DNA of 62,931 nt, the filler included, from Asterionella formosa (Eukaryota), in NCBI GenBank assembly GCA_002256025.1. It is 8 parts of 8 records of this genome, joined end to end, with 100 filler letters (N's around TTAATTAATTAA, not from the genome) between each part and the next. Parts side by side here need not be neighbours in the genome. Positions count along the whole stretch, not along the records: positions 1 to 18,807 come from NKIB01003933.1; 7 more parts are not named here. One strand, written 5' to 3'. The position numbers were made by a program, and so were the translations under genes. Under the pieces are notes generated by a model. It was not told where the DNA came from. It searched no databases and saw only the letters and a list, made by a program, of their open reading frames with translations. This document shows, piece after piece, positions 1-61,847 of this stretch; the stretch's first letter is position 1, and the number at the start of each line of letters is the position of its first letter.

Positions 1-311
1 TAAGAAGCGACGCTTGCCGTAACATTTTCAACGTACGTTTGGTCGAAAGGGTACAGCCCAACCAGTCCAGCGCCATACGTCTTGATTGTTGATGGATCAA
101 CTGAAGAGGTCAGACCTCCGCCTGCAGTGTTGGAGTTCACAATATAGAAGCTTTGAGACTGATCAATGAAAGGGTTGGACGAAGCATTCGTAGACGTATT
201 GAACACGAAGGATGGCCCTGAATGCTCAATTTTATACGCCCACGAATGGGGAATGCTGAGCAAAGCAGCAGCAACAGCAGCAGTAGCAGTAGAGGGCAGC
301 AACTTTATCAT
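1..311 (-). CDS. 5' part of a secreted or membrane protein, truncated at the window start
   Basis: Not in the ORF track. Manual translation from ATG 311 gives MIKLLPSTATAAVAAALLSIPHSWA-YKIEHSGPSF..., open to base 1, with a signal-peptide-like N-terminus and N-x-S/T sequons. Confidence 0.6.
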   Translation of the reverse strand, partial: MIKLLPSTATAAVAAALLSIPHSWAYKIEHSGPSFVFNTSTNASSNPFIDQSQSFYIVNSNTAGGGLTSSVDPSTIKTYGAGLVGLYPFDQTYVENVTASVAS

Positions 312-598
312 CACCTCGTTGACTCTTTTCACCACAAGTGTTATGCAAAAACGTTTCAATAGGCTGTATCCTTTTGTTCCATTCTATATGTCTTGATTAC
401 TGTAAAATACAAACAAGTTTCGCCAACCCAAACAAATACTGGTACCAGGTACTCTTTTTGTCGACCCGAAACAAATACTCCGGGGGAAGATTGATTGTCG
501 TACAAGCTAGTATAGCTATGTCTCGAGGGACTCAATACATAGATATTGAAAAGTCACATTAGGAGAAGCCATCGTTGTCAGAGAATTGCATCGCTTTG

Positions 599-959
599 TT
601 ATTTAGGAAGGTCATTTGCAAAACGAGTCCCAAGTATTATTGTAGATTTTATTTTGTCCATAGAGACCGGCTTTCCAACGTTTTCACATCCGGGGTTCAT
701 CATTATCATTATTCAGCCAATATTTTTTTATAATTCGTCAAGTGATCAACCAATTACCGGGCGGTATATTCCTTCACGATGGGATCACTATCTTATATTT
801 CTTCACCTTGTGTGAATGCAATATCAAAAGATGAAATGCAAAATTATAATGCGGACCAGGTACCAGGTTGTTTTACTTTTTATTTGGGAAGATCATTTGC
901 AAAACGAGTCCCAAGTATTATTGTAGATTATATTTTGTCCACAGAGACCGTTTTTCCAA
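599..959 (+). repeat. About 80-bp direct repeat (599-678 and 880-959)
   Basis: Both copies read TTATTTRGGAAGRTCATTTGCAAAACGAGTCCCAAGTATTATTGTAGATT...TTTCCAA with few mismatches. Confidence 0.9.
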
Positions 960-3500
960 GGAGCAAAGACAGTAGGAATAAATTGGTAAGTTTGAAGGAT
1001 ATTATCAATGTGACGAGACCATTGACAAGGGGCTTTACAGTGACCTTGGAGATTCTTGAGAACAATGGGAATGACAAAATCTGGTGGAATGGGGAACGGC
1101 CTTTGCTGGCCCACCAATCACGAAATTGAACACCAGCTCGCATGAAATATTGTTGTACAGGAGCAGCACCAGCTTCAGCAAAAGCATTAGAAACATCAGC
1201 TCCATAGATTAACTTGTTTTCAAGAGCGCCAAAGGCAAAGAAGAGGCGAAGATCATCGGTGATATCAGGGGTCGTGGGAGCATAAGTGGGGCCATGGATT
1301 TGTGATTGACCACCACGAGTAGAACCATCACAAACAGCTCTTGCCTTTTCTCGATAGTTAGCTATCTTCATCCTTAACCTCCTTGTAGATCCAAACCCAG
1401 CAGTGGAAGATTGCAGCACCAGGAGGAAGAGCTGCAACAGGGGAAACAAAAATGTCTTTCTTATCATATTGATCGAGCTGGCCTGCTGAGACTGGGAGGC
1501 AAGCCAATCAGACCAGTCAGATTGTTTTTCAAGTCCTTGTCTAGTAGTAAGGCGACAGGAAAGGGCACCAGATGTGATGGTCCGCAAGTCACAAAGTTGA
1601 TCAAAGTAGAGTTGAGGAAGTCCAGAAGAAGAGAGAGAGTTTTCATCAAAAGTAAAGCACATGTTGCAGGTGGTGGCTTTATTGTTCCGAAGTGTTTGAA
1701 TGACTTGTGTGAAGTCAGAAACATTGTCAATGGAAACGTCGTTGATGTAGAGAATGTAGGAAAAGCGAAGGCGGGATCACCATCGACTGATGCAAGCAGC
1801 GCGCAGGTGTACCAGAAAGACAGGCCACATAGAGAATCAAATTGAAGTTGTAGACCAGCAGTGTCATGGGTTCCAGTAATTGGTATCATGGTTTCAACAA
1901 AGGATGGACCAAAGGGATTACCATAAAATTCAATAGACATAGCTTCAGGAGAAACAAGGAATGATGTCTGGTGTGGGGAATGGCTTAGTGGTTAGCTCAA
2001 CCTTCTGCGGTGGCGGGTTCGATTCCTGCATTCGTCTCCACCTGCCTTTTTCATATAGTCCCTAGGGTTATGGGGGTGAGGCTGACAAAAGGACACGTCC
2101 CGTTGTATTGTATGGATGAATAAAACCGGTACTAATTCTGCTCATTTATTTGGGCCCAATTGCAATTATTGGATAGCTTTATTGTACTATAAAATTTAAT
2201 TCACATTTAGAAGGTGTGTGGTGTGGGGAGAAAGAACAACAGGAGATAAATCCAGAATTGGAGGGGGAGATGGCTGGGGTAGGAGCCAGTGGGGGAACCA
2301 AGAGCTGCAGATCACATGAAAGAGCTGGAGGGATTGGCGTTAAAAACAGAGCATTGGGCTCTCCGACAGTCATCCCGCAGTCCCCAGGAAGCCGTTCATC
2401 TTTCTGGGGATGGTAAAATGACTGGCGTAGAGAAAATCCGCTTCATGTATGGCATTGTCCAGTGTGAGATAAATATCAGAGACTGGGATCAGGGTGGAGG
2501 TGCTGATGTAAGTGATGTGCCATAGCAAGGCGGTGTGTGGTGCTGTGTAGCCCTTTCCAGCCATGTAGCAGCAGCCCGATCAGCATGACCTTGATGAGAG
2601 GAAATATATCGATGGAAAAAGCAATGCTTGGCCAGGGTGGAGCACCGAGTGCTAGATTGTTCCCAAGTGCCACATGCATCACATTGAAGCTCCTCACGTT
2701 GGCGGAAAGGGTGATGAAGAGGCGTAGTGGGAGGTCCAGAGGACGAGGGAGAGCGAGACTATGTTGGAGGCGGTGTGCAGAGGGAATCAAGGGACGAGGA
2801 GTTTCATGATGAAAAGAAGGACTCTGAGAAATTGCTAATGCAAGATTGGTGACATGGAGCGATTGAGGAACTTGAATCATCAGGAGCCAGGTGATCCCCC
2901 TCTAGGGTCTTGAGCTGAACTTAAACAGGGAAAGATTGAGAATCAAGAAAGGAAATGAAGGGACAGTTCACAGGTATTTTTTGCGATCCTTAGAAATTTC
3001 TCCTTGCCGATAGGATAAGGTTGCTGCTGCAAATTTGACTGGATCAATGGAATCAGAGAAACGAGGGAGTGGTGCAATTGCTGATGAGGTGTAAGAAGCA
3101 TGGGCAACGAGAGTATGTAAGAAGCAGTATGCAGCAAGCTTGCTGTCAGAATGGGTGTCATGCTCTAGGTAAAGGAGGGGGTGAATAATGTCATTGGTCA
3201 AGTTAAGGACAGTGGAGCTTTGTAGTTTGAGAAGGATTAAGAGGCTACCCATTTCAAAGACAACAGCTGTGAGAAGATCTTGGGGCCAAAGAGCATGAAC
3301 CTTTTTGATTTGGCGATGAGGACCTAGATCAATCTGGGTGGCAGTAGCTTCTTGTTGACATCGTTTCCTATACCAGCCAGTCATGGATATCAGTAGGACC
3401 AGTAGAGGTAAGGGTAGTTAGTTCAGTTGAGAGAAAAGTATTGTATCGATGCTATTTATGGCAGTGGTGATGCTGGTGCAGCTCTAAGGCCCTCTGGGGG
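960..3500 (-). mobile_element. Degenerate Ty1/copia (CoDi-like) LTR retrotransposon remnant: gag-like region and start of RT
   Basis: RT motifs KARAVCDGS, TYAP, LRLFFA, GADVSNAFAEA and FRDWW lie at 1080-1360. A decayed zinc-knuckle-like CDACG lies near 2670. Many stops and frameshifts. A SINE interrupts it at 1980-2208. Confidence 0.8.
1980..2208 (+). mobile_element. tRNA-derived SINE, copy 1 (head intact)
   Basis: A-box TGGCTTAGTGG and B-box GGTTCGATTCC. The ~170-bp body is shared with 15964-16143 and 18418-18620. A flanking direct repeat TGGTGTGGGGA (1969-1979 and 2219-2229) is the probable TSD. Confidence 0.8.
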
Positions 3501-3684
3501 ACCAAGTGCAACTTCACAACCCCCACATTTGTCGAGTTCTCTAACAAAAGCGTATGATTAAATTTACTTTTAAAAATTTATTGGACAAAAAAGATAACAA
3601 CAGTTAGAACCAGCACCAGTATTTAAATTTTTTATACAGCTACATACAGTTTTGTACTGCTGTAATAGGGGGACTACGAGACAG

Positions 3685-3968
3685 CAACGAAATTATTGGA
3701 CTGAATATCTTCACCAATATTAACAATTCCAATTTGTCACCTATATGTAGACTATCATAGCTTAGGTAATCATCCAATAATGAAATTTTTACATCAATAT
3801 TGACAACAAAAAGTTGAACTCGCCGCTAGAATCGGTTTTCGTCGTCGTTTGATCAGTTTTGATGCTACGAACAAAAACGAGACATCGCTCGTTGAGTCCG
3901 TGGTGACTAGTTTGATAACGTTTATTAGATAATTATTTCTATCCGATTTACAAATAGATAAGAAAACT
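3685..3968 (-). repeat. Diverged inverted copy of the 6789-7319 repeat family
   Basis: The reverse complement aligns to about 6914-7203 (e.g. CACCRCGGACTCAAC, TGTCTCGTTTTTG, CAAAACTGA, GTTGTCAATA, GTGAAGATATTCA). Confidence 0.8.
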
Positions 3969-4039
3969 AACACTTTTTAGCTAGGTATAAAGGCGAGTTC
4001 ACAAAACACAATTGTAGTACTACAGAGGCAATCCTCCAA

Positions 4040-6660
4040 AATTGTATTACAGCGGCTATGGTCACTTCTGGGTCCGGATAGTTAATTATTTCCCAAATCA
4101 ACACCCTCACCATGACGAAAGCGGCGATAAAACCGGAGCAACGAAGCGATGGAGAGCGCATCAGCAACGTACCACAGCAAGCGTCGACTGCACCATTGAC
4201 AGAGAGAAAACTAATCCAGAGCGAGGGCTGCAGATTTCATGAAGCTAGAAAACCCGGTGGCATTGACTACTACCAAACCGGCCGAGGACTCAATGAGGAC
4301 TGAAAAATTGGCGGCCAAGACCATTAATCCAACGGATCAAGCCACAAGAAAGCAAAGCATCAACCAAGGAACATCGATGGCAAACGAGACGGTGATGGAG
4401 CTCATGGACGACCTTTCAAACTCCATGGAAGCAGCAGAAGCATCAGCGGACATGCATCAGAGACAAAAAGCGCAAGCATCAAACGATCTGACAAAGAACT
4501 AGAGAAAGCAGCGGCATCATAAATTATTTATTCTGACGCAGCGGACAAGAGACTAGAAGAAATGGAGATGGAGGATTTTCCCCCTTGTACACCAAAGAAA
4601 AAGGAAGGACAGCTGGTGCAAGACAGAAACTCCCGGAAACCCAGCAATGGATCAAGCAAGCCTTGTCAATCATCCTCAGATTCCGAAGTCAGTAAGCATG
4701 GCAAAGTAGCAGTTGGATTACTGGTTCTGGCACGGAAATGCAAGGTCAGAGGGATCATCCCGCAGAAATCAGACTTTAAACTCCAGTCGGAGCAGTTCTT
4801 GGAAAAACTTGACACCCTTCTTCAGCTACTAATGGTTAAATAAGACAGCTTTATTAAGTTACTTCCAGTAGAGTTCGGTACCGAGGAAATGTCACCAAAG
4901 GCGATTCTAAAGCTAGATAAACAGGAGCAAACCCGGTTTATCAAATTGTCTGAGGGTACGCAAGGAAGACATCCATCTCTGCATACCTTCACATCAAGCC
5001 CTTATCTTCATACCAAAAGATAAAAAGGAGAGTTCTAAAATTTTTCAGGAACAACAAATGTATGTAGACAATTATGAAAGCAATGCAAAGCCTTGATAAA
5101 GTACAACTTGGATGGTTGTTTGGGAAAAGCAGCTTTGTAGTCGCAGCAGATGGCACCAAATGTTGGCTGGAGGCATTAATGGGACAGGAACTGGCACAGA
5201 CATTAGATTTTCAGGTGCAAAGCAAGGGTATTAAGTTCTCCCAGTTCGTTATAGAAACAAAAACGTATGTATATGTGATTAGTGCAAGCAGAGCAACATT
5301 GCAAGACACCTATGATGAAGTTCTAACCTAAATTCTACTTATCCAAACAGACTACACAGTAGGATTTGTGGTCTATCAAGCACAAACCCATGTAGCTATC
5401 CAGGATGTCGAGGGCATAAATCAATTACTACATCCAACAGAAATGGTTGAGGACAACATTGAGAACTAAAATGATGTCAGGGTTCATGGACATTGACACA
5501 AAGATTGTGTTGAAGGGAGAGTCCACCACTTTTTGCCACTTCATGATGGGAGCCACAGATGCGACAGGGAAGTGCCTACTCTGTGATCATGCAGACTACA
5601 CTTCGACAGGAGTACCAATCATTATCTATCCCACAGCACATGAAGTATTAGCACTCCAACGAGCATGTAAATTCAACAATCTGATTCTACAGGAGTTCTA
5701 AGGGGAGGCACCTCCCACATACTCGATGAAACAAGTTCCCATTGGAGGAGCTCGAACAGTCAAGGAGAAAAAGCAAGTGAGTGCACTGTTGACAAGGTTC
5801 AAGATGAAACCAATGTCAAAAGTGGGAAAATGTCTTCAAACAACACAGTTTGAGGTCATGATCAAGGCAGCAATTCCAATGAAACAAACTGCTTGGAAAC
5901 AGAATGTCAACTCATCCGAGGTCATGGCAGATACAGATGTCACTGACCAGCTAACATTGAAGATATCAGAGCAGTCAAATGTACTCGAAACTCTTCGAAA
6001 AAAGCTGAAAAGAAAAATTGCGTCAATGGATGAAAAGCTAGAAAACTAAACCTCAGAATGAAAAAGTTCATTGGCTACCGAGTGACTGCAAACCATCACA
6101 CCAACCAGAAAGCATCTCAGGTGTCAGCACTAACAACCCAGGAAGAGGACACCCCAACAGAGTCAAGAATGGGAGGAAAAACAGAGAGCATCACAATGGA
6201 TTCATCTGACCAAGCACTCTCTAACAAAAACATTACCCAGTCTCCAGCACTTCTTCTCACCACAATGGACAGCAATGCACTGGATACTAGTTATGTTGCT
6301 TAGAAGCCTTTCATATTCCCAGAGAAAGGAAAATGCTGAAAAGTGGTAAACCACAAGACATTCCAAAAAACGAGCAAAGAAATGTGCCCCTTGCCAGCAG
6401 TCAGAATCATCCAGGGACACCCCTGGAATTGACAAGCTGCTTGTCACGCGCAGAGTTCGGACAACAATGACTTGGCGGCTGACAGTAGCGATTTCGAAAT
6501 GGAGATGGAGAACATAGTAAGAAACCCACTGAACTCAAGATCTACGGTAAGAGGCAGCAAACAAACCCAGCTAACTACTAGGACATAAGCAACAACCCCA
6601 AAAGAGGACAGAAAAGCAGCTGGGAAAGAATACACTCTTTGCATAATAGTGTCAGAAAAT
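4040..6660 (+). pseudogene. Long disrupted ORF, probably ORF1 of an Ambal-like LINE
   Basis: A chain of A-rich, same-strand ORF fragments broken by stops and frameshifts, including a coiled-coil-like stretch. Same strand and composition as the LINE ORF2 at 16145-18310. No diagnostic motif seen. Confidence 0.45.
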
Positions 6661-6788
6661 GCATAAACCGTCAGTCAGGGGTGTTCATGATCATTTCTGC
6701 GATGCAAAGTTTTTATACACATAATGAGCAAGCAGTGTATTGTTGAATGGCTGAAAATAAGTCTATAGTAAACTTTCAAATGACCTCA

Positions 6789-7319
6789 TCAAGATTTCAT
6801 AGAAATATAGACCATGACAATTAGTGCTTACATGAAACTCACTACAAAATTGACATAGAGGAATTTGTTCCATCTTGAAATGTTGTACCCTCTCCGAGAA
6901 TACTGTCGCTCAAGTTTTCTCATGTATTTCTACAAAAGATAGAAAACATTAGCTAGTTAAAGATATCAAGCTAATCACCGCGGACTCAACACTGTCTCGT
7001 TTTTGGTCATATCTTCAAAACTGAGCAAATGACGACCAAAAACAACTTCCAGCGCCGATTTCAACATTTTGTTGTCAATACTAGTGCAAAAAGTTTTGTT
7101 ATTCAGCGATAATCTCGTCTAGTATGTCATTCTTCATACACGTGCGAAATAGGAATTGTTCATTGTCAATATTCGTGAAGATATTCAACTCCATAATTTC
7201 GTCATGGTCAAGGTGGAGTTGCTGTTTCATCAACCCCATACCACAGGCAGCAGTACAAACACACATGCAAGTACTGGTAGTACATACCCAGTAGTATGTA
7301 TGCATGCCAAGCATATATA
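6789..7319 (+). repeat. About 530-bp interspersed repeat, copy A
   Basis: Near-identical to 15182-15708. Confidence 0.95.
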
Positions 7320-7496
7320 ATATACATCACTATATACATGTGTTGTACCAGCAGTTGGAATTCACATGTAACCCTGTAGGTCTGCTGTCACTACTACCTG
7401 GCAAAAAAGTCCACATCATACATCACATCGGCATTATATTTGGAATTGTATTATTTATCCATGAATTGCTTTTTGTAAAAAGTCCACAAATACAAA

Positions 7497-8992
7497 ATGT
7501 CTGGTTCGTCCAACTCATCTCGCAATTCCTCCTCTGAGTAGGATGATTCATCTTGCAGAGTTCAGGAGATAGTTCGTCAGATGATAGTGCTTCCTCTTCT
7601 GGGAAAGAAGGGGTAGATCCCATTAACTTTTCCATCCTGCCATTGTCACCTGGAGGTGACACTCCAGATGCACTGACCATTTTCCTCTTCCCCTTGGAGA
7701 CACTCCTTGGTGCTGGGAACCGGACTCACCAGACTTTGTCATACAGACGATGACTGATTATAATTTAGCTTGTCGCACCAAGGCTGTCAAGAAGATTTGG
7801 CCAAATGCCGAATTTACATTTGGTATGTGCTCTTATCATGCCTGGAATGCATGGGTAAAGAAGCAAAGAGGAAAGTTCAAGAAATACAGCAAAAACAAGA
7901 AGAGAATGGGTGAAGACTTCGAGGCAAATAAAAGAAGTCCCTGGATACAGCTAGTTTCAATCCTTCGCGATTTGATAATTTTTAAGTGGATCAACACATA
8001 CAAGGAAAAGAAAGTTGCAACTGCATGGTTGAAACAATGGGGTCCCACCATTCACACCAGAATTGAATTGAACAGTTCCAATATACTTCGTGGTGGTTTG
8101 CCGGCACACAACAACAATTCAGAGGGCATCAACAGTGGTGATAAATCATTCTTTGACCACAGGATGCCTTTAACGGCTAACTTCATTCATAAAATGTCTG
8201 ACATGTTAGAGGATTGTTCCAAAGGGGATCTATCATTTTGCTCCACTTTACACTCATCGGTACACTCGATCAATTTCTACAAGTCGATTTATAAGCTTCT
8301 TGAGAAAAGCCAAAATGGAGAAGCTACATTTCTCACAATGACATTTGATTTCAAATGTGACGCAATCAGAATTGGAGAGGGTTCACTGTTGATTGCGACA
8401 TCGTCATTTGTGGACCTAAATATTTATGTCCTCTATGCAAACAATGCAGTCCCAAAATACTGCAACTGCATTGTCACAGCACAGTCAACTAGCCCAATCT
8501 CGAAAGAGATATCTTTATATCGGGAACACAGAATCAGTTACTGCACTAATTGTTATGCAATTGATAAAGAAGAACAAAATGCATGATGAGTACAAGCGCC
8601 TTTTCCGAAATCTTGAACAGTATTCTGAACACCACACATTTGATGATGTCCTTTCCCTCACCCGCAGGTTTCACCTTATTGAAACTATTCTGTCCAAGAG
8701 TGAAAACGATGATGTTGCTCTAACTAACTTTTTAGTAATTTTGGGAGCGTGTGGATTGAGACCCATTTCGATTAATAGGTCGAAGGCAATGGGCAATGAA
8801 GGCCTCATGTCTTGCCATTGTCACACATATTTAGCAAACACGTGGTGTAAACATGCTTGTGCTTTTGCATTTGACCGTGGAATTATTTCTACCTTTCCAA
8901 AGACAATGTATCCAAAGCCTAGTGTTAAGCATAAAGGTTCTGGACGAATCAATTATGCGAAACGTGGAGGTAACTTAGATATTAAAGGATGA
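7497..8992 (+). mobile_element. MULE (Mutator-like) transposase C-terminal half: second D, CxxH, E and SWIM finger; disrupted
   Basis: VIQTMTDYNLA...AVKKIWPNA...MCSYH (D2 plus CxxH), HNNNSEGIN (catalytic E) and SCHC...WCKHAC (SWIM). A frameshift lies near 8430-8580. A Ser/Asp-rich leader starts at CAAAATG 7497 and contains a stop and frameshifts. Confidence 0.8.
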
Positions 8993-9028
8993 TAATGTGG
9001 AGGTAACTTAGATATGAAAGGATGATAA
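8964..9028 (+). repeat. 33-bp tandem duplication spanning the stop codon of the MULE C-half
   Basis: GTGGAGGTAACTTAGATATKAAAGGATGATAA occurs twice. Confidence 0.95.
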
Positions 9029-9075
9029 ATTTAGAAAAAAACTAGTAGTAGTGATGATTATAATAGTTATCATTA

Positions 9076-10330
9076 CTAGATAGAAATATCATTAGTTTTA
9101 CTATATCTAACAAGCTCTTCCAAGGCAGACTTAATCAACGCAAATAAGAATCTTTGCGCTTTATGCTGTTCATGGCTTATCACTCTATATGTAATCGTTT
9201 TCGTTTGTTGACCCAAGTTGCCTTTAATCACTGAAAAAATGCCGTTTCCTTCTTGTGTCAGTCTGTAAGATGCATCAGCAGCAAAGAAGATTGGATTGCC
9301 ACAGAATTGCTGTCTGTACGCATTCAGCAACAAATTCTCGGTTGTTAGTACAGCTATCAAAGAGTCGTCTTCTGGTCGACAGTCTATGCCAAGTAGGTAC
9401 ATCGACTGTTGCATGAAATTAAAGATAGTTTCCTTCCTATACGATTCAAGTACAGCAGCGATTCCTCCCCAGTTATTGTCTTGACCATTTATTAGCCCAA
9501 CCGATTTATTGCATAAGCGAAAGAGTTGTCGTTTCATGCACTTTTTCAAATTTTCATCAACAGGAATTCCTTTTGCCCTAGCCTCAGCAATGTAACGTGC
9601 TGGTTTCATGTTCAATTTATTCGGGGAAGTCATTAACACAGATTGATAGTATTTGTGAATATGCCATCCTTGACAACATTATGTTATGTGTGTTTTAAGT
9701 CACCAATCTCAATTGTGATCAAAATTTGTTTTGGTATTGAATAATTCCCGAATTACAAAGGGACATTTACAGGAATGAAAAAATGTGCATCTTTTCTTTG
9801 TAACTCTAATGCCATCGTCAGCTCTAAAGTATGGACGATCTTTTGCTAACCACATGAGACTCCCGCCACCTCCAAAATTCCGTTGTCCCAAATCGCAAAG
9901 GATACCTTCAACCTTCCCAATCTTGACATCTGTAACAAAATAATTAATCACCCACACCTCGACTTTTGTTTCATTTGGTGGATTGACGAAAACACCGTCA
10001 TCAAGTACTAAAAGAACCTTGCTTGCCAAGATACCAGGCGCTTCTGTGACAGTTTACATTCCACCTTCGATTTCTTCGTTATCACAGCTTTTGAAGTCAT
10101 CCTCGTTACCCTCTTCAAATTTAGGCTGTTTTTCGATACCAGAACTGTCAGTACTATCACTGTCGCTATGACTTTGACTGTGACTGTCATCTTCATCAAC
10201 CACTTCTTCGCTTTCGTCTTAGGTATCTTCCTTCCCAGTGGATTTCAAACCACTAGGTCGGTATGTAAACAAGTTTTGTCTCAACATGGAGGAGCATCTA
10301 TAATTTTCTCCACTTTATCAACACAAACAT
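9076..10330 (-). mobile_element. MULE transposase N-terminal half: acidic region, WRKY/FAR1-like Zn finger and first D; disrupted
   Basis: KRCTFFHSCKCPF...H zinc-finger pattern, then LTTENLL...FFAADASYRL (D1), then strands and a helix ending at TAG 9076. Stops and frameshifts lie upstream. The start is approximate. Confidence 0.75.
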
Positions 10331-10677
10331 TCCTTGCTTGGCGGTGTATCAATGTGGGTACCGGTACATCGCTAGTAAATAAATTGATTATGGTAACACG
10401 CCTTGCTAATTTCTTTTGATATTGTTTTATGTCACTGCATGTGTAGAAAATGCTCCGTGGTATTTCCATGTAATTTTCCCATGACAACAAATCTCAATGT
10501 GGGTACTGGTCTCGAAACCCGTAATGGGACATCCTTTATGCTGTTTGAACATAAATACAGCCATGACGGCTGATGGAGTCACTTTGTAAGAAAACGAACA
10601 TCATAGACCGGTGTCATTATTCGAATCGAAGTACTGGTACTGTGTGAAAACGGCATAAGCTCAAATTTTCGGTTAGC

Positions 10678-11010
10678 TTGAGCGGCGTTGCGGCGAAAAT
10701 TGATGTACCAAAGAAGTCAATTGATGTTGTTGGCGCCAAGGCTATTGTAGAGGCTGTCAAGGTCAATGCTGAATTGACTACAGTTGTTTTCGATTTTAAT
10801 TCTCTTGGTCTTGATGCCGCCAAGGCCATCAACATACTTCATCAAGGTCGAGACTGTCGTGACTCCACTTGATGATGGTTTGAAGGCCATTACTCCATCG
10901 AGGTCAATGATAACACAGGTCTTCAAGGTCAACACTTTTGTGACTACACTTGATCTCAATTACAAGCAATTCAATTGGTGATGATGGTGCGAAAGCCATT
11001 AACCCCTCAA
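10678..11010 (+). pseudogene. RNI/NLRC3-type leucine-rich repeat fragment
   Basis: SIDVVGAKAIVEAVKVNAELTTVVFDFNSLGLDAAKAI followed by further decayed repeats. Confidence 0.65.
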
Positions 11011-11399
11011 GGTCAATACTGGATTGACTGACTTTGCTTTATTTTTGAGGCAATTCCCGCTCCAGCTATCGTCTTGCCATTCGGGTACTTCTAAGTAATC
11101 CTTATTTAGGGGCAATATGGGGCACATCGAATTTTTCGGCGTTAGAATTGCCGATTTTTAGCATGACAACCAGAATAACGGTAATATGCATGGAGATGGT
11201 AGTACAACAAGCGTAAAACACACGAGAATGATTGTGACAACATGCAACATCAATGAAAATTGAACATGATGTTTGGAGCCACCAAAGTATGAAATGCGAT
11301 GTAATAAGTTGCATCAAATAAGAAATAGAAAAAATTGTTTTGGGTTAGAAATGAAGTGAAAAATAAGAGTTTCAATGGAGACACATGCATTGTGAATCA

Positions 11400-12520
11400 T
11401 TGTAGTACTCACACAGGCAACATTGCTTGACTTTCCATCACCACACAATTGAAGCCTGAAAGAAGAAGAAAAAATACTGAACCCAATTTAGACCTGCATC
11501 GTTATGTAGTTAAATGGTCTGGTTGTTGCAACCATGCGCATCGCTGTAGTAGCCTGACACCAGTAGCAGTATTTTCGCCACAGTCATCATTCCTCCAGCC
11601 ACCAAACAAGTAACCCTGATCATTCCATTCTGAGCAAGCGTGATCGCCACGCTGCACCAGCACTATTGACTCTCTCTAGCTGAGTATTCATGTAGCTTGT
11701 GATACAAACTCGTAGTAGAAATGTAGCAAAGTGCGTTAGTACAAGAAACACATCAACAAATACGAGCAAGAACAATATGTCGTCAAAGAGTAGTCATCGA
11801 TAAATACATTGGCTCATATGTGGATAGATACAATCGAAACAAAATGACAGTGTGGAACGACAAACGACGATGGAAGTGATCAAAACAGACCATGGAAGCA
11901 AACAAATCGGAACTTCGACAATTTTGTATCTACGATCACATTCAGTGTTTCACTGTTGTACTCACCGATCCGCTCTAACAAGCATAACATGCAGCAGACA
12001 ATGAGCTCATAATAAAGTCGAAAGTTCCTTTTGTAAGCCCGAATTGAGCAACGGCAGGTAGGATAGAGTGAGAATTATAATTGTGAGGACTAAATCGGGT
12101 ATTCGGTATGCAAAATCAATCAATGTGTGAACAATACAATTTAACATTCTGATCTTGTAAAGATAATACCGAGTCTACAGAGAGAATATTATAACGTGCT
12201 CAAAGTAAGCGTTAAAGTTTAGCTTAAACCATGCATGGTTGTTTTCAGTACCACGCACATATGTAGGCTAGATGACTACTGGTAGAATATCCGTTAAGCA
12301 TCATCAGATGCATGACCGGAGCAAAAACTTGCCACCAACATCAGATGTATTGCTATCATCGCTTGTCCGACGAAATATGGACGATGCGACTACATGAATC
12401 CCTTGAGAAGACAAGCAATCCAACAACAAACCGCATCAGTTAGACAACGAATCGCTACTGTGTCATCACTGAACTGATTTCACTTCAAACCGGTCATGAT
12501 GGACGATGATCGGCATGGTG
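11400..12520 (-). pseudogene. Possible decayed Kelch-repeat gene
   Basis: The minus frame near 11590-11665 reads RGDHACSEWNDQGYLFGGW (Kelch-like). GTGAGT donor-like sites occur near 11410 and 11965. The extent is uncertain. Confidence 0.3.
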
Positions 12521-12897
12521 AGAGGTGAATTGCCGGAGTCCACTTTTCAGGAGACGAACAAAAACGAGGTGAATTCTAGATATGAATTATTAAAATCTGT
12601 ATAGTATATAAAATGGTTTCCTTAAGTAGACCCCTTGCCAATTTCGGCCATCCCAGGGCTGGACTACCGAGGGGCAACTGCTACAAATTGTAATGCCAAA
12701 ATGCGAAGATAGGAAATATACAAAATATATTTTAATGATGGGCAATATCGGACCCATTGCAAATTTCGATGTGAAGATAGAAAATAAACGAAGTATATTA
12801 TAAATATGATGGGCTATACTGAGCTAAAATTGACATTTACACTCGATGATTGGGCAGTAGGTAAGCGAATGGCGCGACGATAGTAGGTAGTTTAAGA

Positions 12898-12997
12898 ATT
12901 GCCTCAGCAATACCCTTCTCGGAGGCTACATGCCTTCTCGTCCACATGTGTACTCGCAGGCATGAGACCACCTCGGGCGTGTATTGCCTTCAGCAAT
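12898..12997 (-). mobile_element. Internally deleted copy of the CGAG hairpin element
   Basis: The reverse complement matches both ends of 18618-18806. It is bounded by ATTGCCT(T)CAGCAAT direct repeats. Confidence 0.85.
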
Positions 12998-13009
12998 TAA
13001 ATTCATGTC

Positions 13010-13130
13010 AATGCCAATTCAATTGGTGTTGATGGCGCCAATCGAATTGCAGATGCTCTCAAGAAGGTCAATCCTGTCTTGACATCTTGACAACGCTTTC
13101 TCTCAATTGTAATGCAACTGGTATTGGTTT
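13010..13130 (+). pseudogene. Second RNI-type LRR fragment
   Basis: NSIGVDGANRIADALK-VNPVLT, with a frameshift. Confidence 0.55.
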
Positions 13131-13131
13131 A

Positions 13132-14110
13132 CTAATTGAACAACTTACTATTTACTATTGATTGCTTAATAATTATAAATTTACCATCCTTTTCCATAAG
13201 AATCAAGAAAAATGAAACTAGAAATGGAGGAAAACGATTCTCTCCATGGGCCCTTGTGTTAATGGCATTCCTAGCTTGTTTCATGATCGCAACTGAGATT
13301 TTCTCGGGAGTGGAACCAGGCGACAAGTAGATATGAAGTCTCAAAGCTCCATTGGTGAGTTGATTGTCCATAGGACCTGCATGAACTGTATCACCCCGCA
13401 TTCAAAATATGTACTTGAAAGAAATGCAAAGTAACATCGCATGTTGATTCTCTGCTGCTTTACCTCTTTGATCTAAGTCAAAGGTACAGCCGATTGACTC
13501 TCTATCCCAGACATTAATGGAGAACCCACCAGAACCAAGGGACTTATACAAGAATCCCCAAGGAAGGCACACGTCAACATCATTGATTACCAGTGCTGTA
13601 TGCTGGTAGTCAAAATGTGGCTCTTGATGAACCGTTGACAAATTGACATTAGTGTGCAACAATGTACAGGTATGTGGCATACCTTTGCTGACATTGGTTG
13701 CGTTACCTGCTACAAATGGGGGCTGCGTAACAGAACCGGGAATGACCATTGACAACATTTTCCAAAAGTGGTTCACATGGTCATATGATGTGGGGTCCAA
13801 GATCTTTATTTTGTAAGTGAATGGGCCATAGACATTGCCCCACCTGTCATAGCCGCTTCACGTTTGCGAGGTGTAATGACAAGTACATGCCGTCCCACCT
13901 TCTTTCCGCCCTTTCTTTGATCACTGATAACGACCTGATTTTCTCCACTCTTTCCAACATGATGGGAAGTAGCTTATCGACATCCAAAGCCACATTCTCG
14001 TTGGCTCCGATGTGACCTTGTAGGAAAAAGCGAAGTAACTTACAGTCCAAGTTCTCCTTTATTTTTATCTAGCAACACTCGAAGTTTCCACTTCATGAGA
14101 AAACGATTGG
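13132..14110 (-). pseudogene. 2OG-Fe(II) dioxygenase-like (double-stranded beta-helix) gene, interrupted
   Basis: HQEPHFDY (HxD), then MRGDTVHAG (distal His) and ALRLHIY (Arg). An in-frame stop at 13402-13404 and a frameshift near 13800-13850. Confidence 0.6.
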
Positions 14111-14595
14111 CGTTTTCACGAAGTGGGACTGGAACAATTGAGATGTCTTTCCCAAGTTGGGTGGCACTTAAGCTGTTCGAGACGACCATTGCCGGTTTTT
14201 GGTAAAGAATGTTGTATGTGGGTGAGCAGCAACATGGAATACCACATCATTATTACCGGCGGTTCACACTGGTATACACGAATCAATAAGCAGTTGTATT
14301 CTACACAATTGCGACATAAAACAATAGTAAAGTTTTTAATGTGGCCATAAAAAGTTGTTACATCAACACACATACAGGTATACCCTGGTAACAGGTACCA
14401 GTAATATTATATGTATATGATAACATAAGTAACAGGACAATAGGTACTAAATTATCTGGATGCGGCTAGAGTTGGATATTCTTTATTGGGGTGAGAATGT
14501 ATTGAAAAATACATTACCTACCAATATAATAAAATATTTTGATGATATTATTTATTGACTACAAAAAAGAGGTATTCAATTCCATAGTGGTAGTA

Positions 14596-15072
14596 CTAAT
14601 GATTGTTACTACTATTCTGCTTGTCTGAAGCAAGCATTGCGGCTAATGCGCGATCGCTTACTTCTATACACTCAAGTTGTGCAGCATACATATGATCACG
14701 AAAAAAATCGAGAAGAATGGGCGGCTCGTGATTTAGACCACAAGCAACAAACTGTGCGGCAATCTGATCAATCTTGATCTTAATCCAGACTTCATCCTCC
14801 AAAACGGATTCAAAGTATTCAGGTAAAGGAGAAGTATTGTCTTAAGGAACGATTTTCTTGATTTCGGAAGGCTTCCGGGCATGGTCGAGAATTGATTCAT
14901 TGTACACATTGACCAACGCTTTGGCCTTCGTGTAGCATACAAACTGGCCTATTTCGCCAGCATAATTACCCTTCAAAACGGAAACTAGATCACCCATCTC
15001 CAGAGAAAGGTCTTCATCTTCGTTCTGATCAGACAACAGGTTGGGAGTTTGGGAGGCACTCATGATTATCAT
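14596..15072 (-). pseudogene. Small KOW-motif protein, frameshifted
   Basis: MGDLVSVLKGNYAGEIGQFV is KOW-like. The reading continues in another frame (14596-14802). Confidence 0.4.
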
Positions 15073-15181
15073 GTACTCTACTACCGGTATATTGCAGTAA
15101 TTTTGTACAAGATAAACTATTGCATTTTGTACCATGTAAACATAGTAGATGTCGCATTTATGACTATATTTAACCCCCTAC

Positions 15182-15708
15182 TCAAGATTCCATAGAAATA
15201 TGGACCACGACAATTAGTGCTTACATGAAACTCACTACAAAATTGACATAGAGGAATTTGTTCCATCTTGAAATGTTGTACCCTCTCCGAGAATACTGTC
15301 GCTCAAGTTTTCTCAGGTATTTCTACAAAAGATAGAAAACATTAGCTAGTTAAAGATATCAAGCTAATCACCGCGGACTCAACACTGTCTCGTTTTTGGT
15401 CATATCTTCAAAACTGAGCAAATGACGACCAAAAACAACTTCCAGCGCCGATTTCAACATTTTGTTGTCAATACTAGTGCAAAAAGTTTTGTTATTCAGC
15501 GATAATCTCGTCTAGTATGTCATTCTTCATACACGTGCGAAATAGGAATTGTTCATTGTCAATATTCGTGAAGATATTCAACTCCATAATTTCGTCATGG
15601 TCAAGATGGAGTTGCTGTCTCATCAACCCCATAGCACAGGCAGCAGTACAAACACACATGCAAGTACTGGTAGTACATAACCAGTAGTATGTATGCCAAA
15701 CATATATA
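15182..15708 (+). repeat. About 530-bp interspersed repeat, copy B
   Basis: Near-identical to 6789-7319. Preceded by TTAACCCCCTAC. Confidence 0.95.
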
Positions 15709-15963
15709 CCGGTAATATGTAATGCTATATACGGAATGTACAAAGTATATATAAGGTCTGTTGCATGTATGATGTGTTCCATGTCGAAAACGTAAGTAGA
15801 TCTGATACATTATGCATCCTATTTCTTGACAAAATGTACAGTAGTACAAATATATTTTTATTTTTCGATTTTCAATATACTACGTAAAACGAGTCATTGA
15901 AAATTTAGTTAGGAAAAGTTATAGAAGAACACCAACAAGAAGAAATGACAGAGACAAATCATA

Positions 15964-16143
15964 CCACCTGCCTTTTTCATGTAGCCCCTAGTAGGGTTCG
16001 GGGGGGGGGTGCGGCTGACAAAAAGACAGGTCCCATTGTACCGTACGGACGAATGAAACCGTTACTAATTGTGTCCATTTATTTGGTGGGCCCAATTGCA
16101 AATATCAGATAGTTTTAATGTACTATAAAATTTAATTGACATC
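15964..16143 (+). mobile_element. tRNA-derived SINE, copy 2 (5'-truncated, no head)
   Basis: CCACCTGCCTTTTTCAT...GGCTGACAAAA...TGTACTATAAAATTTAATT matches 2038-2207. Confidence 0.85.
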
Positions 16144-16144
16144 T

Positions 16145-18310
16145 TTTTGACTTCCAAAACATCAAGGGGCTGCATCTCCAAAGGACTTCATCAGACCTCA
16201 TGATTAATCTAGAATCAATGCGCGATATAGAAGCAAGTGTGTTTGGTTGAGCAGAAACAAACACTAACTGGAATCAATATGACGCACAGGCAGACTACAG
16301 GGAAACGCCTCCTGAGTATTTCAAATGAACAAACAGAGTTCTTCTCTAGCAACGTGCCTCTGCCTCAAAGTACAAACCAGGAGGGACTGCAATGCTGACC
16401 TTGACCGGCAAATGGTGTGGGAGGGCCGAGCCAGGTGGAGGAAAACATCCCTCAGGCATGGGTAGGTGGAGTTACATGGTATTGAAGGGCAAAACTGGTC
16501 AGGAACTATTAGTGATAGCTGCATATAGAGTTTCTTGTGTCTCAATGCCCCAGCATGGGGAAGGAACCACATATCATCAGAAGCATATGAATATGTCAAA
16601 AACAGGGAACATCAACCCAAATCCAAGAAAGCAGTTTACTCTAGACATGATTATGTTCATTCAAGACCACAAGGGCAGAGGAAGAGAAATTTTACTTATA
16701 CTCGATGCAAACGAGGAAGTTGGTAAAAAACACAATGCATAACGGCTCTAGTCCAGGAATGTCCTCTCTACGATATTTTAGCAACATCCCATCCTGAAAA
16801 ACAAATGCCAGTAACATTCGACAGAGGTTCAAAGACCATTGACTACATATCATTAGGAAGCATAAAGTGCAAGGAAACAATCCTGATGGCAGGCGCGCTA
16901 CCATTTTACCGCCTAATACAGACGGACCACAGAGTGATGTATGCGGAATTCGACGGGGAAAAGCTCTTTGGTTCGGACCAGTCCGCAATCATCTTGGAGA
17001 AACACAGAACATTCACATCCAATAAGCCAGCAGAGGTTGCGAAAAATCTACAGACAGCCAGTCAAAAAATACTGGCGACTCCATAACATGTCTGAAAGGA
17101 TAGAGAAACTACATGAGAATATAAAAGACAAGAAAATCCAGGAGCGAGGTGCAACAGGAATGGGAAAGTCTGGACAAGGAGATTGGCAGGGCCATGAAGA
17201 TAGGAGAAAAGGTGCTCAAGAAACCGTCTCGAAGATACGCCTGGTCCAAAACTCTACGTCGTGCGGCGTACACTAGACAATACTGGAAAAAGAGAACAAC
17301 GCTTCACAAGTACGGAATAGAAGAGACAAAAACCCTCAATACAATTAGGGAAATTGCGGGAATAAAATACGAAGACATGGGAAAAGGAGCATCCATAAAC
17401 AAACTAGAGCAGTGGGCCGAGGAAAGCAAACCAAACCCCAAGGATATTCAACGCAAGTTGGTTAACTTCAGAACCACCGAAATGAGAGCAGAGTAAGTTC
17501 AAAAACTGAAGGGCCGAACATCCTCAATGGCTTAGAAGGAGATGAGGAGACTCCAATCATTGATACATTCAGAGGAGCATCGAAAGAATGGATATGACCG
17601 ACTGAAAAGCATCTTCATTCCCAGCATGGCAGGAGCTCTCAAAAAAGTACTGATGCCAGTCAGAGACGGTCTTGAAAGTAATAGTATCACATGGAAAACA
17701 AAATTTGAAGCAGACAGACTAGAAACAACGCTTTTGGAACACTGCCACAGCCAATAAAGAAGAGCTTCAGAAACTCAGTTTGTTCATGGGCCAATGCAGG
17801 ATTTCCTAGAATTTCGTAGACTCACTCGCTCAGGCAGCAGATCAAATTCTGAGAGGTTTTATTTGAGAACTTCGACACTCACTGCTTTCAAGGAGTAAAA
17901 GAATTCGTAGCAGCAATGATAATACCCAAGGAAATTTACAAATTGAACGAAAATAAACACAGAAATCTCAAAAGCTGACTTCACAAAGGGTATAAGAGGA
18001 TGGAAAGAATCCATGTCAACATCCCCAAGTGGAAGGCACTTGGGACACTCAAAGCATTTCTTCGAGATAAGGAACTAGCAGCGGGGTTGCAAGAATGCTC
18101 AATGGTCCGGTACAACTGGGGTTTCCCCAAAAAGATGGCAACAGACAGTATCAGTTTGCTTTGTTAGAAAAAGACAAGAGGATTCCGAAAATAAGTAGTA
18201 GGCTCCGAATAATTCATCTTTTCGAAGCTGACTACAACCTGTTCCTGAAATTAATCTGGGGATGTCGCATGATTGGCAGAGCAGAGGAACACAAAGCCCT
18301 TGGCTAAGAT
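16145..18310 (+). mobile_element. Degenerate non-LTR retrotransposon ORF2 (APE endonuclease plus start of RT), Ambal-like
   Basis: Endonuclease motifs FQNIKGL, AETNTNW, GMGRWSY, VIAAYRV, NPRKQF, ILDANE, RGSKTIDY and TDHR. RT-region motifs WKESMSTSPSGRHLGH and LEKD...RLRIIHLFEADYNLFLKLIWG. Confidence 0.9.
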
Positions 18311-18417
18311 TTGCAGGGATCAAGGAAAAACAGAGGGTGTGTGCAAGGAGGCTTGGAGTGCCCAGAGAGGCCATAATGGCCCACACAGAAACGTCATGCT
18401 TGATGAATTACATGATA

Positions 18418-18620
18418 AATTATCAATCAAATCTTATAGTACATGAATGCCATCCAATAATCGCACTCGTGCCCCCAAGTAAAAAATAGACACAATTAGT
18501 ACCGGTTTTATTAGTCCGCATGAGACAGCCAACGGGACCTATCTTTTCGTCAGCCGCACCCTCCAGAACTCTAGAGACTACATCAAAAAGAAAGGTGGCG
18601 AATGCAGGAATCGAACCTGC
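18418..18620 (-). mobile_element. tRNA-derived SINE, copy 3 (B-box retained)
   Basis: Reverse complement GCAGGTTCGATTCCTGCATTCGCCACC...GCGGCTGAC...AATAAAACCGGTACTAATT...TGTACTATAAGATTTGATT. Confidence 0.85.
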
Positions 18621-18806
18621 TGAAGGCAATACACGCCCGAGGTGGTCTCTTGCCTGCGAGTATACATGTGTTCGAGGCTGGGTGGCGCGAGTAGGTTGAC
18701 CGTACGAGTGGCGCCCCCGGCGCTGCGAGAAGGTCACCCTACGAGTGCCATCCCAGTCGAGTACACATGTATACGAGAAGGCAAGTAGCCGCCGAGAAGG
18801 GTATTG
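18618..18806 (+). mobile_element. 180-nt rod-like hairpin element with five CGAG/CGAG tandem G.A motifs; possibly a non-autonomous Crypton-like element
   Basis: Manual pairing of 18627-18806 from CAATAC/GTATTG to a GGCGCC-CCC-GGCGCT apex. A second, deleted copy is at 12898-12997. The family assignment is inference. Confidence 0.75.
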
Positions 18807-18807
18807 T

Positions 18808-18907
18808 NNNNNNNNNNNNNNNNNNNNNNNNNNNNNNNNNNNNNNNNNNNNTTAATTAATTAANNNNNNNNNNNNNNNNNNNNNNNNNNNNNNNNNNNNN
18901 NNNNNNN
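18808..18907. other. Artificial contig linker N44-TTAATTAATTAA-N44 (also 37709-37808, 38976-39075, 40240-40339, 41506-41605, 60399-60498, 61665-61764)
   Basis: Identical 100-nt spacers with stops in all six frames. Confidence 0.99.
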
Positions 18908-19288
18908 TTGAGTGACTCAATGCCGGCATCATCCTTTTACGCGGGAGTACCAGGTACCGGTAGCTGGTACGGGTAGACTATCGTAGTCTACCGGATGGTG
19001 TTTTCAAGCAACGATATGCTAGCAGGTACCTGGTACACCCTCTTTCTGCTTTCGTCCCCGTCCACAAACAACACTGCAGCTTGATGTTGATTCACATGCG
19101 TTCCTCTTGCTGTTTGCAGACCAGTGAATGAGCAGCAAGTCAAGGTCTGCTAGTCTCTACAGTTCCATCTACCACGTCGACAGCATCCCCAGAACTAGAA
19201 GAGCTTTCCTATTCGAGAATAGCAACGGAAGTTGAGAAAGACAAGCTGACGTCAGATCCATCCTAAGCCGTTGCGGTTTCTCTGACCA

Positions 19289-24962: not shown

Positions 24963-25389
24963 GACTGACTGCTGGTAACAAACACACAGGTCCTGTTTCT
25001 ATTTCATGAGTCTGCAAATAGAAATCATCTTATTTGTGTGATGCATCTTATGATGGCAATTACATGATCATATAATTTAAAATGGTTATTGTCATTAATT
25101 AAATAGTAACCTTTTGGACTATGCATATTCAATTATATATTAATCATTTTTATAGCGCATTCTTACTAGTATATTTCTAGGTTAGTCTTTGCTGCGCTCC
25201 ATGGATCATAAGGTGGGTTGGTAGAATTCTGGATGATTAGTCACTTCTTCGTGCAGAAGTAGGGGTAAAAATAAATTTGTGGTAGCATTGATCTTGGATC
25301 GATTCTTGTTGACTGCACTGTTCATGTCAGCCGGAGAATTGGATCGTAAAGGATTATCTTTGTTTCCCCACTCTTTGGTGCTGTTCCTC

Positions 25390-25795
25390 TTTCATCTGTT
25401 TGTTTTTCAGTATGAACTTTGTAGATACGGTGGGATGGAAACGGTCTGTTTGGATTGGATTTGGATGCGTGGAGGTCGTCAAAAGCCTTGCTCAATTTAA
25501 TGATGCTGTTGGGTGGATTTCGGTCATTTTGGTCTATCACCATGAGTTTCTATTTAATTCTTGTGATTCTTTCATTTGTCTGTTGTTCAGTATGTATTTC
25601 CTGGGTGCGGTGGGACTGAAACGGTCTGTTTGGATCGGATTTGAATGCGTGGATATCGTCAAAAGCCTTAATAAATTTGATGATGCTGATGGGTGCATTT
25701 CGGTCATTTTGGTCTATCACCATAAGTTTCTAGTCAATTCTTGTGATTCTTTCATCTTTTTTTGTTCAGTATGAACTGTGTAGCTGCAGTGGCAC
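25390..25795 (+). repeat. 180-bp tandem repeat, about 2.25 copies
   Basis: Units 25390-25569 and 25570-25749 align (AAACGGTCTGTTTGGAT, CGGTCATTTTGGTCTATCACCAT). Confidence 0.9.
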
Positions 25796-37708: not shown

Positions 37709-37808
37709 NNNNNNNNNNNNNNNNNNNNNNNNNNNNNNNNNNNNNNNNNNNNTTAATTAATTAANNNNNNNNNNNNNNNNNNNNNNNNNNNNNNNNNNNN
37801 NNNNNNNN

Positions 37809-38975: not shown

Positions 38976-39075
38976 NNNNNNNNNNNNNNNNNNNNNNNNN
39001 NNNNNNNNNNNNNNNNNNNTTAATTAATTAANNNNNNNNNNNNNNNNNNNNNNNNNNNNNNNNNNNNNNNNNNNN

Positions 39076-40239: not shown

Positions 40240-40392
40240 NNNNNNNNNNNNNNNNNNNNNNNNNNNNNNNNNNNNNNNNNNNNTTAATTAATTAANNNNN
40301 NNNNNNNNNNNNNNNNNNNNNNNNNNNNNNNNNNNNNNNTCCTTCGCATTTCATGTACATTTCAGTCCATGTGTACGTTTCCCTGTAACTAC

Positions 40393-41505: not shown

Positions 41506-42330
41506 NNNNNNNNNNNNNNNNNNNNNNNNNNNNNNNNNNNNNNNNNNNNTTAATTAATTAANNNNNNNNNNNNNNNNNNNNNNNNNNNNNNNNNNNNNNN
41601 NNNNNCTAAACGGAAATAGACAGGATTTATATAGCAGAAGAATCTGCAGACGAGCGGCGTGAGAAAGATCTTGACCGGTCATTCCAGGGCAGTACTGGAG
41701 CGCGCTAGAGTAGCGCCATATATTTCAACAAGGATTAGGCTGGCTTCCCCAAGGGTCATTCAGAAAATCTATTCATATTCGCCTGCAAGTTCTACTCGTT
41801 GTCATCAATTTCTATTCTTAGTCAGGAGTTCTAAACGTAGGATGATTCTTATGCATTTGTATTCTGAAGCAAGAAGACGGTTTGCCTGCCAAACAAGTTG
41901 ATCCAAGTCGTGTTCCGAGTTTTATTCTGCAAGTCGTCATCCGTCTACAAGAGGAATGTTTTCCAAAATTACTTAAGGAAACTTGTTTCTATCGAAAGCT
42001 GGCCTATCTCGTCCGGCAGGCATGGGGTGAATCATTGGGAGTGAATTGTAACTGAAAAGGTGCACATAAAAAGAACATGCGCTACTACCTTGTGGGCAGA
42101 TGCATACCGGTATGTAAGTAGGCAGTTCATAAGATATATAAATATACCGAGGTTACAAAAACTTCGATATTAACCCTTACAATTAGTTTCCTATGTAGTG
42201 TAGCGGTAAATGGATATAAAAAAGTCATTTCGCCCATAATTTTCTTCATTGCGTTAGCACAATAAAGCCGTTCATTGTTGGCTGCGCGTTATACAAATTG
42301 GATCGACATGCCTCGCTTCCCTGTGACAGC

Positions 42331-61664: not shown

Positions 61665-61847
61665 NNNNNNNNNNNNNNNNNNNNNNNNNNNNNNNNNNNN
61701 NNNNNNNNTTAATTAATTAANNNNNNNNNNNNNNNNNNNNNNNNNNNNNNNNNNNNNNNNNNNNATCTAGTGATAAAGTATATGCAAATGTACTACTAGT
61801 ATATGGTAATTATTTAATTAAATAGAAAGAATGTGACAAATGAACAT

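Follow-up and report, generated by a model that had tools for sequence, protein, structure and literature searches.

Whether the catalytic domain of a DDE transposase can be divided between two genes is the question raised by a locus of Asterionella formosa (assembly GCA_002256025.1), in which two transposase halves lie on opposite strands and face each other. The window, meaning the whole 62,931-nt stretch that was analysed and along which all positions are counted, has a G+C content of approximately 37-52% in 1-kb windows and resembles eukaryotic DNA; positions 1-18,807 correspond to NKIB01003933.1, the part that carries both halves. To our knowledge, DDE transposases hold the RNase H-like catalytic core in one chain, and no description of a DDE transposase with a divided catalytic domain was found in literature searches. 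The locus is read here, from sequence comparison, as a dead copy of a divergent Mutator-like element (MULE) from a lineage in which the products of two genes would pair to form one DDE site, and this whole chain of argument is given a probability of about 0.5.

A preliminary description of the locus had proposed a minus-strand gene with a zinc finger and the first Asp that ends approximately 65 residues further on at 9076, and a plus-strand gene with the second Asp, CxxH, Glu, and SWIM motifs, and both were recovered by open reading frame (ORF) and motif mapping. The minus-strand gene, or N-half, is a pseudogene here and occupies 9076..10287, as located by motif mapping and by tblastn with the intact relative P0207. 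Its start codon (ATG, 10285-10287) is followed by an acidic/Ser-rich leader, the zinc-finger-like motif RCTFFHSCKCPFVI of the form C..C.C...H..H (9751-9792 and downstream), the predicted first catalytic Asp in FFAADASY (9265-9288), the segment HKAQRFLFALIKSALEELVRY (9103-9165), the tail SKTNDISI, and a TAG stop (CTA on the plus strand, 9076-9078) placed 65 residues past the first Asp. Residues 1-404 of P0207 (404 aa) align by tblastn from 10287 down to 9079 with 83% identity, and the aligned window sequence contains five in-frame stops: one at codon 23, one at 10054-10056, and three within approximately 9680-9725, where the sequence is scrambled. The plus-strand gene, or C-half (7497..8992), is also a pseudogene here and begins with its own ATG at 7497 and a Ser/Asp-rich leader, as had been noted from the sequence. 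The leader is followed by a RED/FPLP/WxWEP linker (FPLPLGD..WCWEP, 7681-7722, with FPLPLGD at 7681-7701), the second Asp in QTMTD (7744-7758), CxxH in GMCSYHAW (7822-7845), the Glu in NNNSEG (8110-8127), the SWIM motif CHCHTYLANTWCKHAC (CHCH..CKHAC, 8813-8860), and a TGA stop (8990-8992). This gene is interrupted by a TAG at 7537-7539, a site that reads GAG in the related metagenome locus L003, and by three frame changes, one near 8423 and two in the leader. Compared with the intact relative P0001 (522 aa), its identity is 58% over 250 residues and 52% over 143 residues in a second frame.

The decay reported for this copy is confirmed by these in-frame stops and frame changes in both genes. 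The two halves do not overlap, and the distance between their stop codons, previously put at approximately 84 bp, was measured as an AT-rich spacer of 83 nt (8993..9075). The extent first given to the locus, 7497-10330, is correct at its start, which is the C-half ATG, but not at its end, which lies 43 nt past the N-half ATG. No second copy of either half was detected within the window by tblastn or profile hidden Markov models, and Rfam and tRNA scans of the window gave no match. The halves are not homologous to one another (hhalign probability 0.35%). An origin of the C-half leader as a copy of the N-half leader within a long terminal inverted repeat (TIR) was ruled out, as the 5' regions share no DNA likeness, and is further countered by the lack of N-terminal likeness between the relatives P0102 and P0067.

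On sequence comparison, the locus is a very divergent branch of the Mutator-like kind that lies below the Pfam cut-off. The order D, D, E is kept with MULE-like spacing, from which the catalytic role of these residues is predicted: in the C-half alignment, the second Asp is 27 residues from the His and 126 from the Glu, compared with 24 and 136 in Muta1 of Aedes aegypti (PMC5225508), and D288 and D385 are 97 residues apart in P0129, a relative in which both halves form a single ORF. The Muta1 report describes D214, D283, and E419 as each essential and also describes the CxxH motif, and the likeness to Muta1 and to MURA of MuDR extends to the order zinc finger, D, D, CxxH, W, and E, with SWIM in some (PMC5225508). 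Canonical MULE transposases are one polypeptide, whereas here one chain terminates past the first-Asp region and the second Asp lies in another gene, which starts ahead of it. Among 47 aligned C-half sequences, D67, C92, H95, E193, N196, and K200 are invariant, and at least 90% of rows retain W100, W147, and the SWIM residues C424, C426, C435, and H437; in the N-half set, at least 90% of the 21 rows retain the Asp of AAD(A/T)SY. The zinc-finger pattern C-x5-C-x-C...H-x2-H recurs in P0207, P0173, P0180, and the collinear forms. The region has no Pfam match and neighbours FLYWCH clusters in the ESM Atlas (0.86), and the relation between the folds is as described in PMC1702500. Other ESM Atlas neighbours of the two halves, which serve as leads only, are MULE, SWIM, ZSWIM RNaseH-like, FLYWCH, and FAR1 clusters. 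Weak matches to the Pfam MULE profile (PF10551) were found in 11 of 21 N-half and 5 of 47 C-half members, all below curated cut-offs, and the Pfam SWIM profile weakly matches 7 of 47 C-half members (best E 6.9e-4, below the cut-off). Five pieces of the window searched against Pfam gave no match, and sequence searches of the PDB, made with the C-half and with the profiles of both halves, gave no meaningful relative of known structure.

The division of the gene extends well beyond this copy. A HMMER search with the 308-residue C-half frame against 1.84 billion representatives (E<=1e-3) returned 154 matches, and an N-half-like region is present in only two of the 150 best, P0067 (859 aa) and P0129 (782 aa), and absent from the other 148. 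The preliminary description had allowed that homologues could be collinear single ORFs with the Ser-rich part as an internal insertion; P0067 and P0129 are collinear, full-length single ORFs, but neither contains a Ser-rich insert. Seventy-one C-half matches extend to the strand-4 region, one of which is P0067, and the other 70 are preceded there by a leader alone, with a median length of 34.5 residues and an enrichment in S, D, E, A, and P. Cys-rich N-termini precede the acidic leader in the C-half-only proteins P0066, P0102, P0059, and P0055, with P0102 having 292 residues ahead of the C-half. In P0104, the beginning of a C-half is fused to a leucine-rich-repeat protein.

The N-half search, performed with a word index only, gave 17 matches, of which 13 were examined together with six further cluster members and the C-half sequence P0161. 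Ten N-half relatives with a C-terminus (P0173, P0180, P0193, P0178, P0171, P0184, P0183, P0200, P0201, and P0207), at 37-94% identity, end within a few residues of the window stop, and none of them continues into a C-half; their tails are of similar length and share part of their sequence, and the remaining matches are fragments or frame-shifted copies. Complete N-half ORFs include P0173 (343 aa, 53% identity) and P0180/P0193 (328 aa, 37%), and the window's own family is represented by intact ORFs in P0207 and P0201 (386 aa). The N-half-only rows terminate where collinear relatives continue into '..FVGREDNDLF', and the C-half begins at the RED/FPLP motif, the very point at which those rows end, so that the two do not overlap. 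Collinear P0129 is tiled without overlap by N-half-only P0193 (87-343) and C-half-only P0011 (372-766), and coverage of the 99-position Pfam MULE profile, of which each protein contains only about half, is complementary, with N-half-only proteins matching from position 4 to 54-64, near their C-termini, and C-half-only P0008 matching 56-96. The break, which the preliminary description would place between the helix and strand 4 of the RNase H fold, falls at approximately position 60 of this profile. Since C-half-only and N-half-only relatives share this break point, the split is a property of the lineage rather than damage to the window copy, and by these comparisons it is very probably real, old, and conserved. 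The part of the earlier suggestion that concerns a naturally split gene is therefore upheld, both by the 148 C-half relatives that lack an N-half and by N-half-only proteins that share the stop down to 37% identity. In an unrooted, quick maximum-likelihood tree of 39 C-half regions, the four collinear rows group as a single clade (SH-aLRT 99), so that one state change in either direction suffices for the pattern of split and collinear genes. Word-index searches for a longer, fused form of either half, which constitute weak evidence, found none.

These relatives bear directly on the idea that a one-off inversion, or two independent truncations, broke a single dead copy. The copy is indeed dead and lies among other repeats, and its geometry fits a simple inversion of approximately 7500-9075, but intact ORFs and relatives at 37-59% identity have the same stop and start, and the spacer at approximately 9016 is covered by contigs of three runs, leaving this explanation with very little probability. 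A less extreme alternative is that the relatives are truly collinear genes with an intron at the break, cut in two by ORF callers, and that the window family is an amplified, rearranged, non-autonomous derivative. The relatives are all ORF calls and genomic context is available for four loci only, collinear P0067 and P0129 exist, and locus L001 has an intron-like interruption, all of which would fit. Leaders of at least 49 stop-free, acidic/Ser-rich residues without N-half likeness, however, precede 30 of the 70 C-half-only matches, and such leaders are unlikely to be intron read-through because the chance of 50 stop-free codons in DNA of the window's composition is only 0.047. The N-half tails, similar across 37-94% identity, are also unlike intron read-through, and in the window itself the halves lie on opposite strands, the intact 404-aa N-half ORF ends at the same stop, and an RNA contig continues without a break from the leader into the body of the C-half. 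An intron artefact is accordingly considered improbable.

Further evidence on copies and expression comes from sequencing contigs aligned to 6500-11500, an interval that also contains unrelated high-copy repeats and in which summed depth is not equivalent to copy number. Run X1, the probable source sample (0.77 of sampled words), contributes 33,011 contigs at 90-100% identity, comprising 6374 at >=99%, 13,126 at 95-99%, and 13,511 at 90-95%, and this spread shows that the family has many diverged copies. The extra letters of the window at 8423 and at 9721 are each absent from 12 contigs, so that at least part of the damage is private to some copies. The polyA RNA run X21, from the same sample, has contigs of 90-99% identity over 7549-8992 and 9767-9899, which are undamaged at 8423 and 9721 and one of which is the unbroken contig from leader to body (7549-7736). 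X21 has zero cover over 9005-9672 and 10007-10674. It is also empty over 6834-7501, which holds much higher-copy DNA repeats, and over 11176-11500; the DNA runs peak in both stretches, and this argues against DNA carry-over. RNA from both halves is represented by polyA contigs over parts of each, which show neither strand nor transcript ends. The same contigs bear on a scheme in which trans-splicing joins the opposite-strand pre-mRNAs to encode one full-length transposase. Read on the minus strand, the N-half end (..TATA|GTAAAA..) resembles a splice donor, which is the sole point in favour of this scheme, whereas the C-half ATG and long leader are conserved, as are the N-half stop and tail, and RNA contigs join the leader with the body and none joins the halves, making trans-splicing highly improbable. 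One X1 contig joins 7841 to 9724, which might represent a deletion derivative that keeps both gene starts.

Two features lie at the junction itself. A 33-nt tandem duplication (8964-9028, tandem-repeat search) copies the last codons and stop of the C-half ORF, with its second copy inside the spacer, and this second copy is absent from L003. A hairpin of 14-15 bp at approximately 9041-9078, mostly in the spacer, ends on the N-half stop codon, and the fold of 8960-9100 has an energy of -27.6 kcal/mol (z -3.25). A misassembly near 9000-9076, joining two unrelated repeat copies, had been named in the preliminary description as one circumstance that would undo the proposal. The repetitive nature of the family, the duplication and hairpin at the junction, the divergence of L003 at 8991, and the lack of a contig bridging both stops among the 32 listed of 34,552 are all compatible with a false join. 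Contigs from the independent assemblies of X1 (8), X2 (1), and X3 (1, 56 letters to its end) nevertheless cover spacer position 9016, and the split would stand on the relatives even if the join were false; an assembly artefact is thus a very poor explanation.

The flanks and the ends of the element are less sharply defined. A metagenome scan with alignment A2 gave four loci, including L001, L002, and L003, and relatives were absent from viral-contig and genome-contig scans. Positions 1-1763 of L003 (1852 nt), which is also decayed, correspond to window 7254-8991 with 92.0% identity, and L002 is of the same type but shorter. The upstream region of the C-half gene (7254..7496, plus strand) is approximately 92% identical in L003, and the portion of this region up to 7319 forms part of a 531-nt direct repeat (6789-7319 and 15182-15708) with 97.6% identity and sharp ends, the copies being 8.4 kb apart; an inverted copy with 74% identity lies at 3687-3968. 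The right end of this repeat abuts the C-half upstream region in both the window and L003, its summed DNA depth is several times that of the transposase halves, and it contains no internal TIR; it could be an element end or an unrelated repeat. The upstream region of the N-half gene is short (10288..10356, minus strand): an X1 contig identical to the window starts at 10356 and covers 10356-10746 with 0 differences, and summed depth drops from 21.3k (10341-10507) to 7.7k (10508-10674). From this contig start and drop in depth, the sequence shared by the family may end near 10356.

A mechanism can be proposed in which an ancestral collinear gene underwent one inversion, with one breakpoint in the loop that follows the first-Asp region and the other downstream of the stop, to yield two convergent genes, after which the N-half would have gained a stop and the C-half a start and leader. 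The N-half product would begin with an acidic leader, followed by a zinc finger of WRKY/FLYWCH-like type and the initial part of the catalytic domain, which holds the first Asp. The C-half product would consist of a leader rich in Ser, Asp, and Glu, the RED-FPLP-WxWEP linker, and then the second Asp, CxxH, Glu, and SWIM finger. The two proteins would pair into a single RNase H-like DDE site, with the N-half contributing DNA binding and the first Asp and the C-half the rest. We infer this two-protein assembly because each of D, D, and E is essential in Muta1 and both halves keep theirs, and for the same reason the C-half alone, which lacks the first Asp, should not cut (PMC5225508). The broader proposal, that an old and widespread algal and protist MULE lineage uses an obligately two-chain DDE transposase whose fold was cut by one inversion between the first and second Asp, with the genes facing each other, is put forward tentatively, at somewhat below even odds.

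It is also conceivable that the half-genes act separately and rebuild no enzyme, for example as truncated proteins that regulate collinear elements or as DNA-binding or SWIM proteins recruited by the host. The C-half gene of L001 (6246 nt), 46-47% identical to that of the window, fits such independent roles: it appears to have an intron or in-frame break, its convergent neighbour 40 nt away is an unrelated ORF, and profile search found no N-half within 4.6 kb downstream. The neighbouring ORF is intact, encodes 1419 aa (1695-5954 of L001, minus strand), and has a DUF6824 match (E 2.5e-15) and a long acidic tail; a literature search found no mention of DUF6824. The Cys-rich N-termini particular to P0066, P0102, P0059, and P0055 point in the same direction, as does the excess of C-half over N-half relatives (154 versus 17, from searches that differ in reach). 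Catalysis, however, accounts better than a purely structural role would for the invariant D, CxxH, and E of the 47 C-half sequences and for the Asp retained by at least 90% of N-half rows; each half exists in many decaying copies in this genome, as a transposon would, and half a catalytic domain in the N-half has no evident use alone. Separate functions are for these reasons judged unlikely, though by no means negligible.

Several observations weigh against a two-chain transposase, in addition to the missing bridging contig. As the L001 C-half faces an unrelated ORF and has no N-half nearby, tail-to-tail pairing is not universal, and among the loci seen this layout is limited to the window's family. 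L003 diverges from the window exactly at the C-half stop, although the coverage stated in its record name is approximately 1. No TIRs or target-site duplications of 8-11 bp scored above shuffled sequence between the flanks, which bears on mobility as one unit, although the search rests on a single full copy that may be truncated. The Pfam MULE cut-off of 27.6 bits is not reached, the best match being 17.2 bits (E 0.0072, P0200). No intact C-half was found at >=70% identity, such matches being fragments, and all relatives are ORF calls on metagenome or transcriptome contigs; an M start is partly a product of ORF calling. Ratios of nonsynonymous to synonymous substitution between decayed copies are uneven, at 0.36 and 0.31 in the catalytic part and 1.2 in the SWIM part, from small counts. 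One further case is consistent with paired genes: the Logan contigs that carry N-half P0193 and C-half P0011 are both 3009 nt long, which suggests that the two are neighbours on one contig in a lineage 37-38% identical to that of the window, and no further pair of N-half and C-half clusters with equal-sized Logan contigs was found.

Two-protein transposition systems include PIF/Harbinger, with a transposase and a Myb-like DNA-binding protein, TnsA/TnsB of Tn7, and orfA/orfB of IS3, and in each of these every catalytic domain is whole in one chain or is fused by frameshifting. The proposed system likewise shares functions between two products, but the break falls inside the DDE domain and the genes lie on opposite strands. 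A further comparison is with P0067 and P0129, which belong to the same divergent family and align with both halves in order without overlap or gap, but are single ORFs in which the split site has no leader, the first-Asp region is not followed by a stop, and there is no second start. The mudrA and mudrB genes of MuDR face each other. MuDR resembles the present locus as a Mutator element with two genes (PMC6446971), but MURB lies outside the transposase fold, whereas the second gene here encodes the rest of the catalytic domain. The portions of the MULE survey literature consulted list extra ORFs (mudrB, mutB, vanB/C, and zinc-finger ORFs) and mention no division of the DDE domain (PMC6446971). 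An active MULE of Phaeodactylum tricornutum is described as 3707 bp long with TIRs of approximately 200 bp, a 9-bp target-site duplication, and two ORFs, one with MULE and SWIM domains and the other a lineage-specific zinc-finger protein of unclear role that its authors call a UBR-type E3 ligase (bioRxiv 10.1101/2023.01.02.522487); compared by this description only, it is similarly algal, of similar size, and has two ORFs. Kinship between its second ORF and the N-half would be a lead.

Other features of the window are distinct from the transposase genes. A very high-copy repeat at 11009-11500 has a summed X1 depth of 1.1-2.5 million, against 0.03-0.14 million over the transposase genes, and shows many loose ends and back-joints in contigs. 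On the plus strand at 10650-11050, a coding-like repeat with a period of approximately 84 nt (28 aa) and 3-4 copies is covered by X21 RNA contigs; we take it to resemble leucine-rich repeats of the ribonuclease-inhibitor type, and one 74-aa ORF from it gave no match against Pfam. A 760-aa open frame at 19286-21568 (plus strand), with four FF domains and one WW domain, is an ordinary host gene. Remnants of retroelement-like ORFs without a Pfam match lie at 928-1776 and 16350-16742, and a 180-nt tandem repeat (2.2 copies, 85% matches) lies at 25388-25777. Paired blocks of 44 N, 12 nt apart, at 18808-18907, 37709-37808, 38976-39075, 40240-40339, 41506-41605, 60399-60498, and 61665-61764 are filler between parts; they recur at steps of approximately 1266 nt in two places, and the sequence between them was not reported as repeated.

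If a two-chain enzyme is confirmed, this would be the first cut-and-paste transposase with the catalytic fold itself divided between polypeptides, and it would indicate that an RNase H-like fold can assemble in trans in nature. Such elements would be missed or mislabelled by homology-based annotation, as their pieces fall below the Pfam cut-off and the half-proteins resemble fragments, and the finding could be relevant to the unexplained second ORF in the active MULE of Phaeodactylum. For the elements themselves, the arrangement would constitute a natural two-component switch of transposition, in which activity requires both genes.

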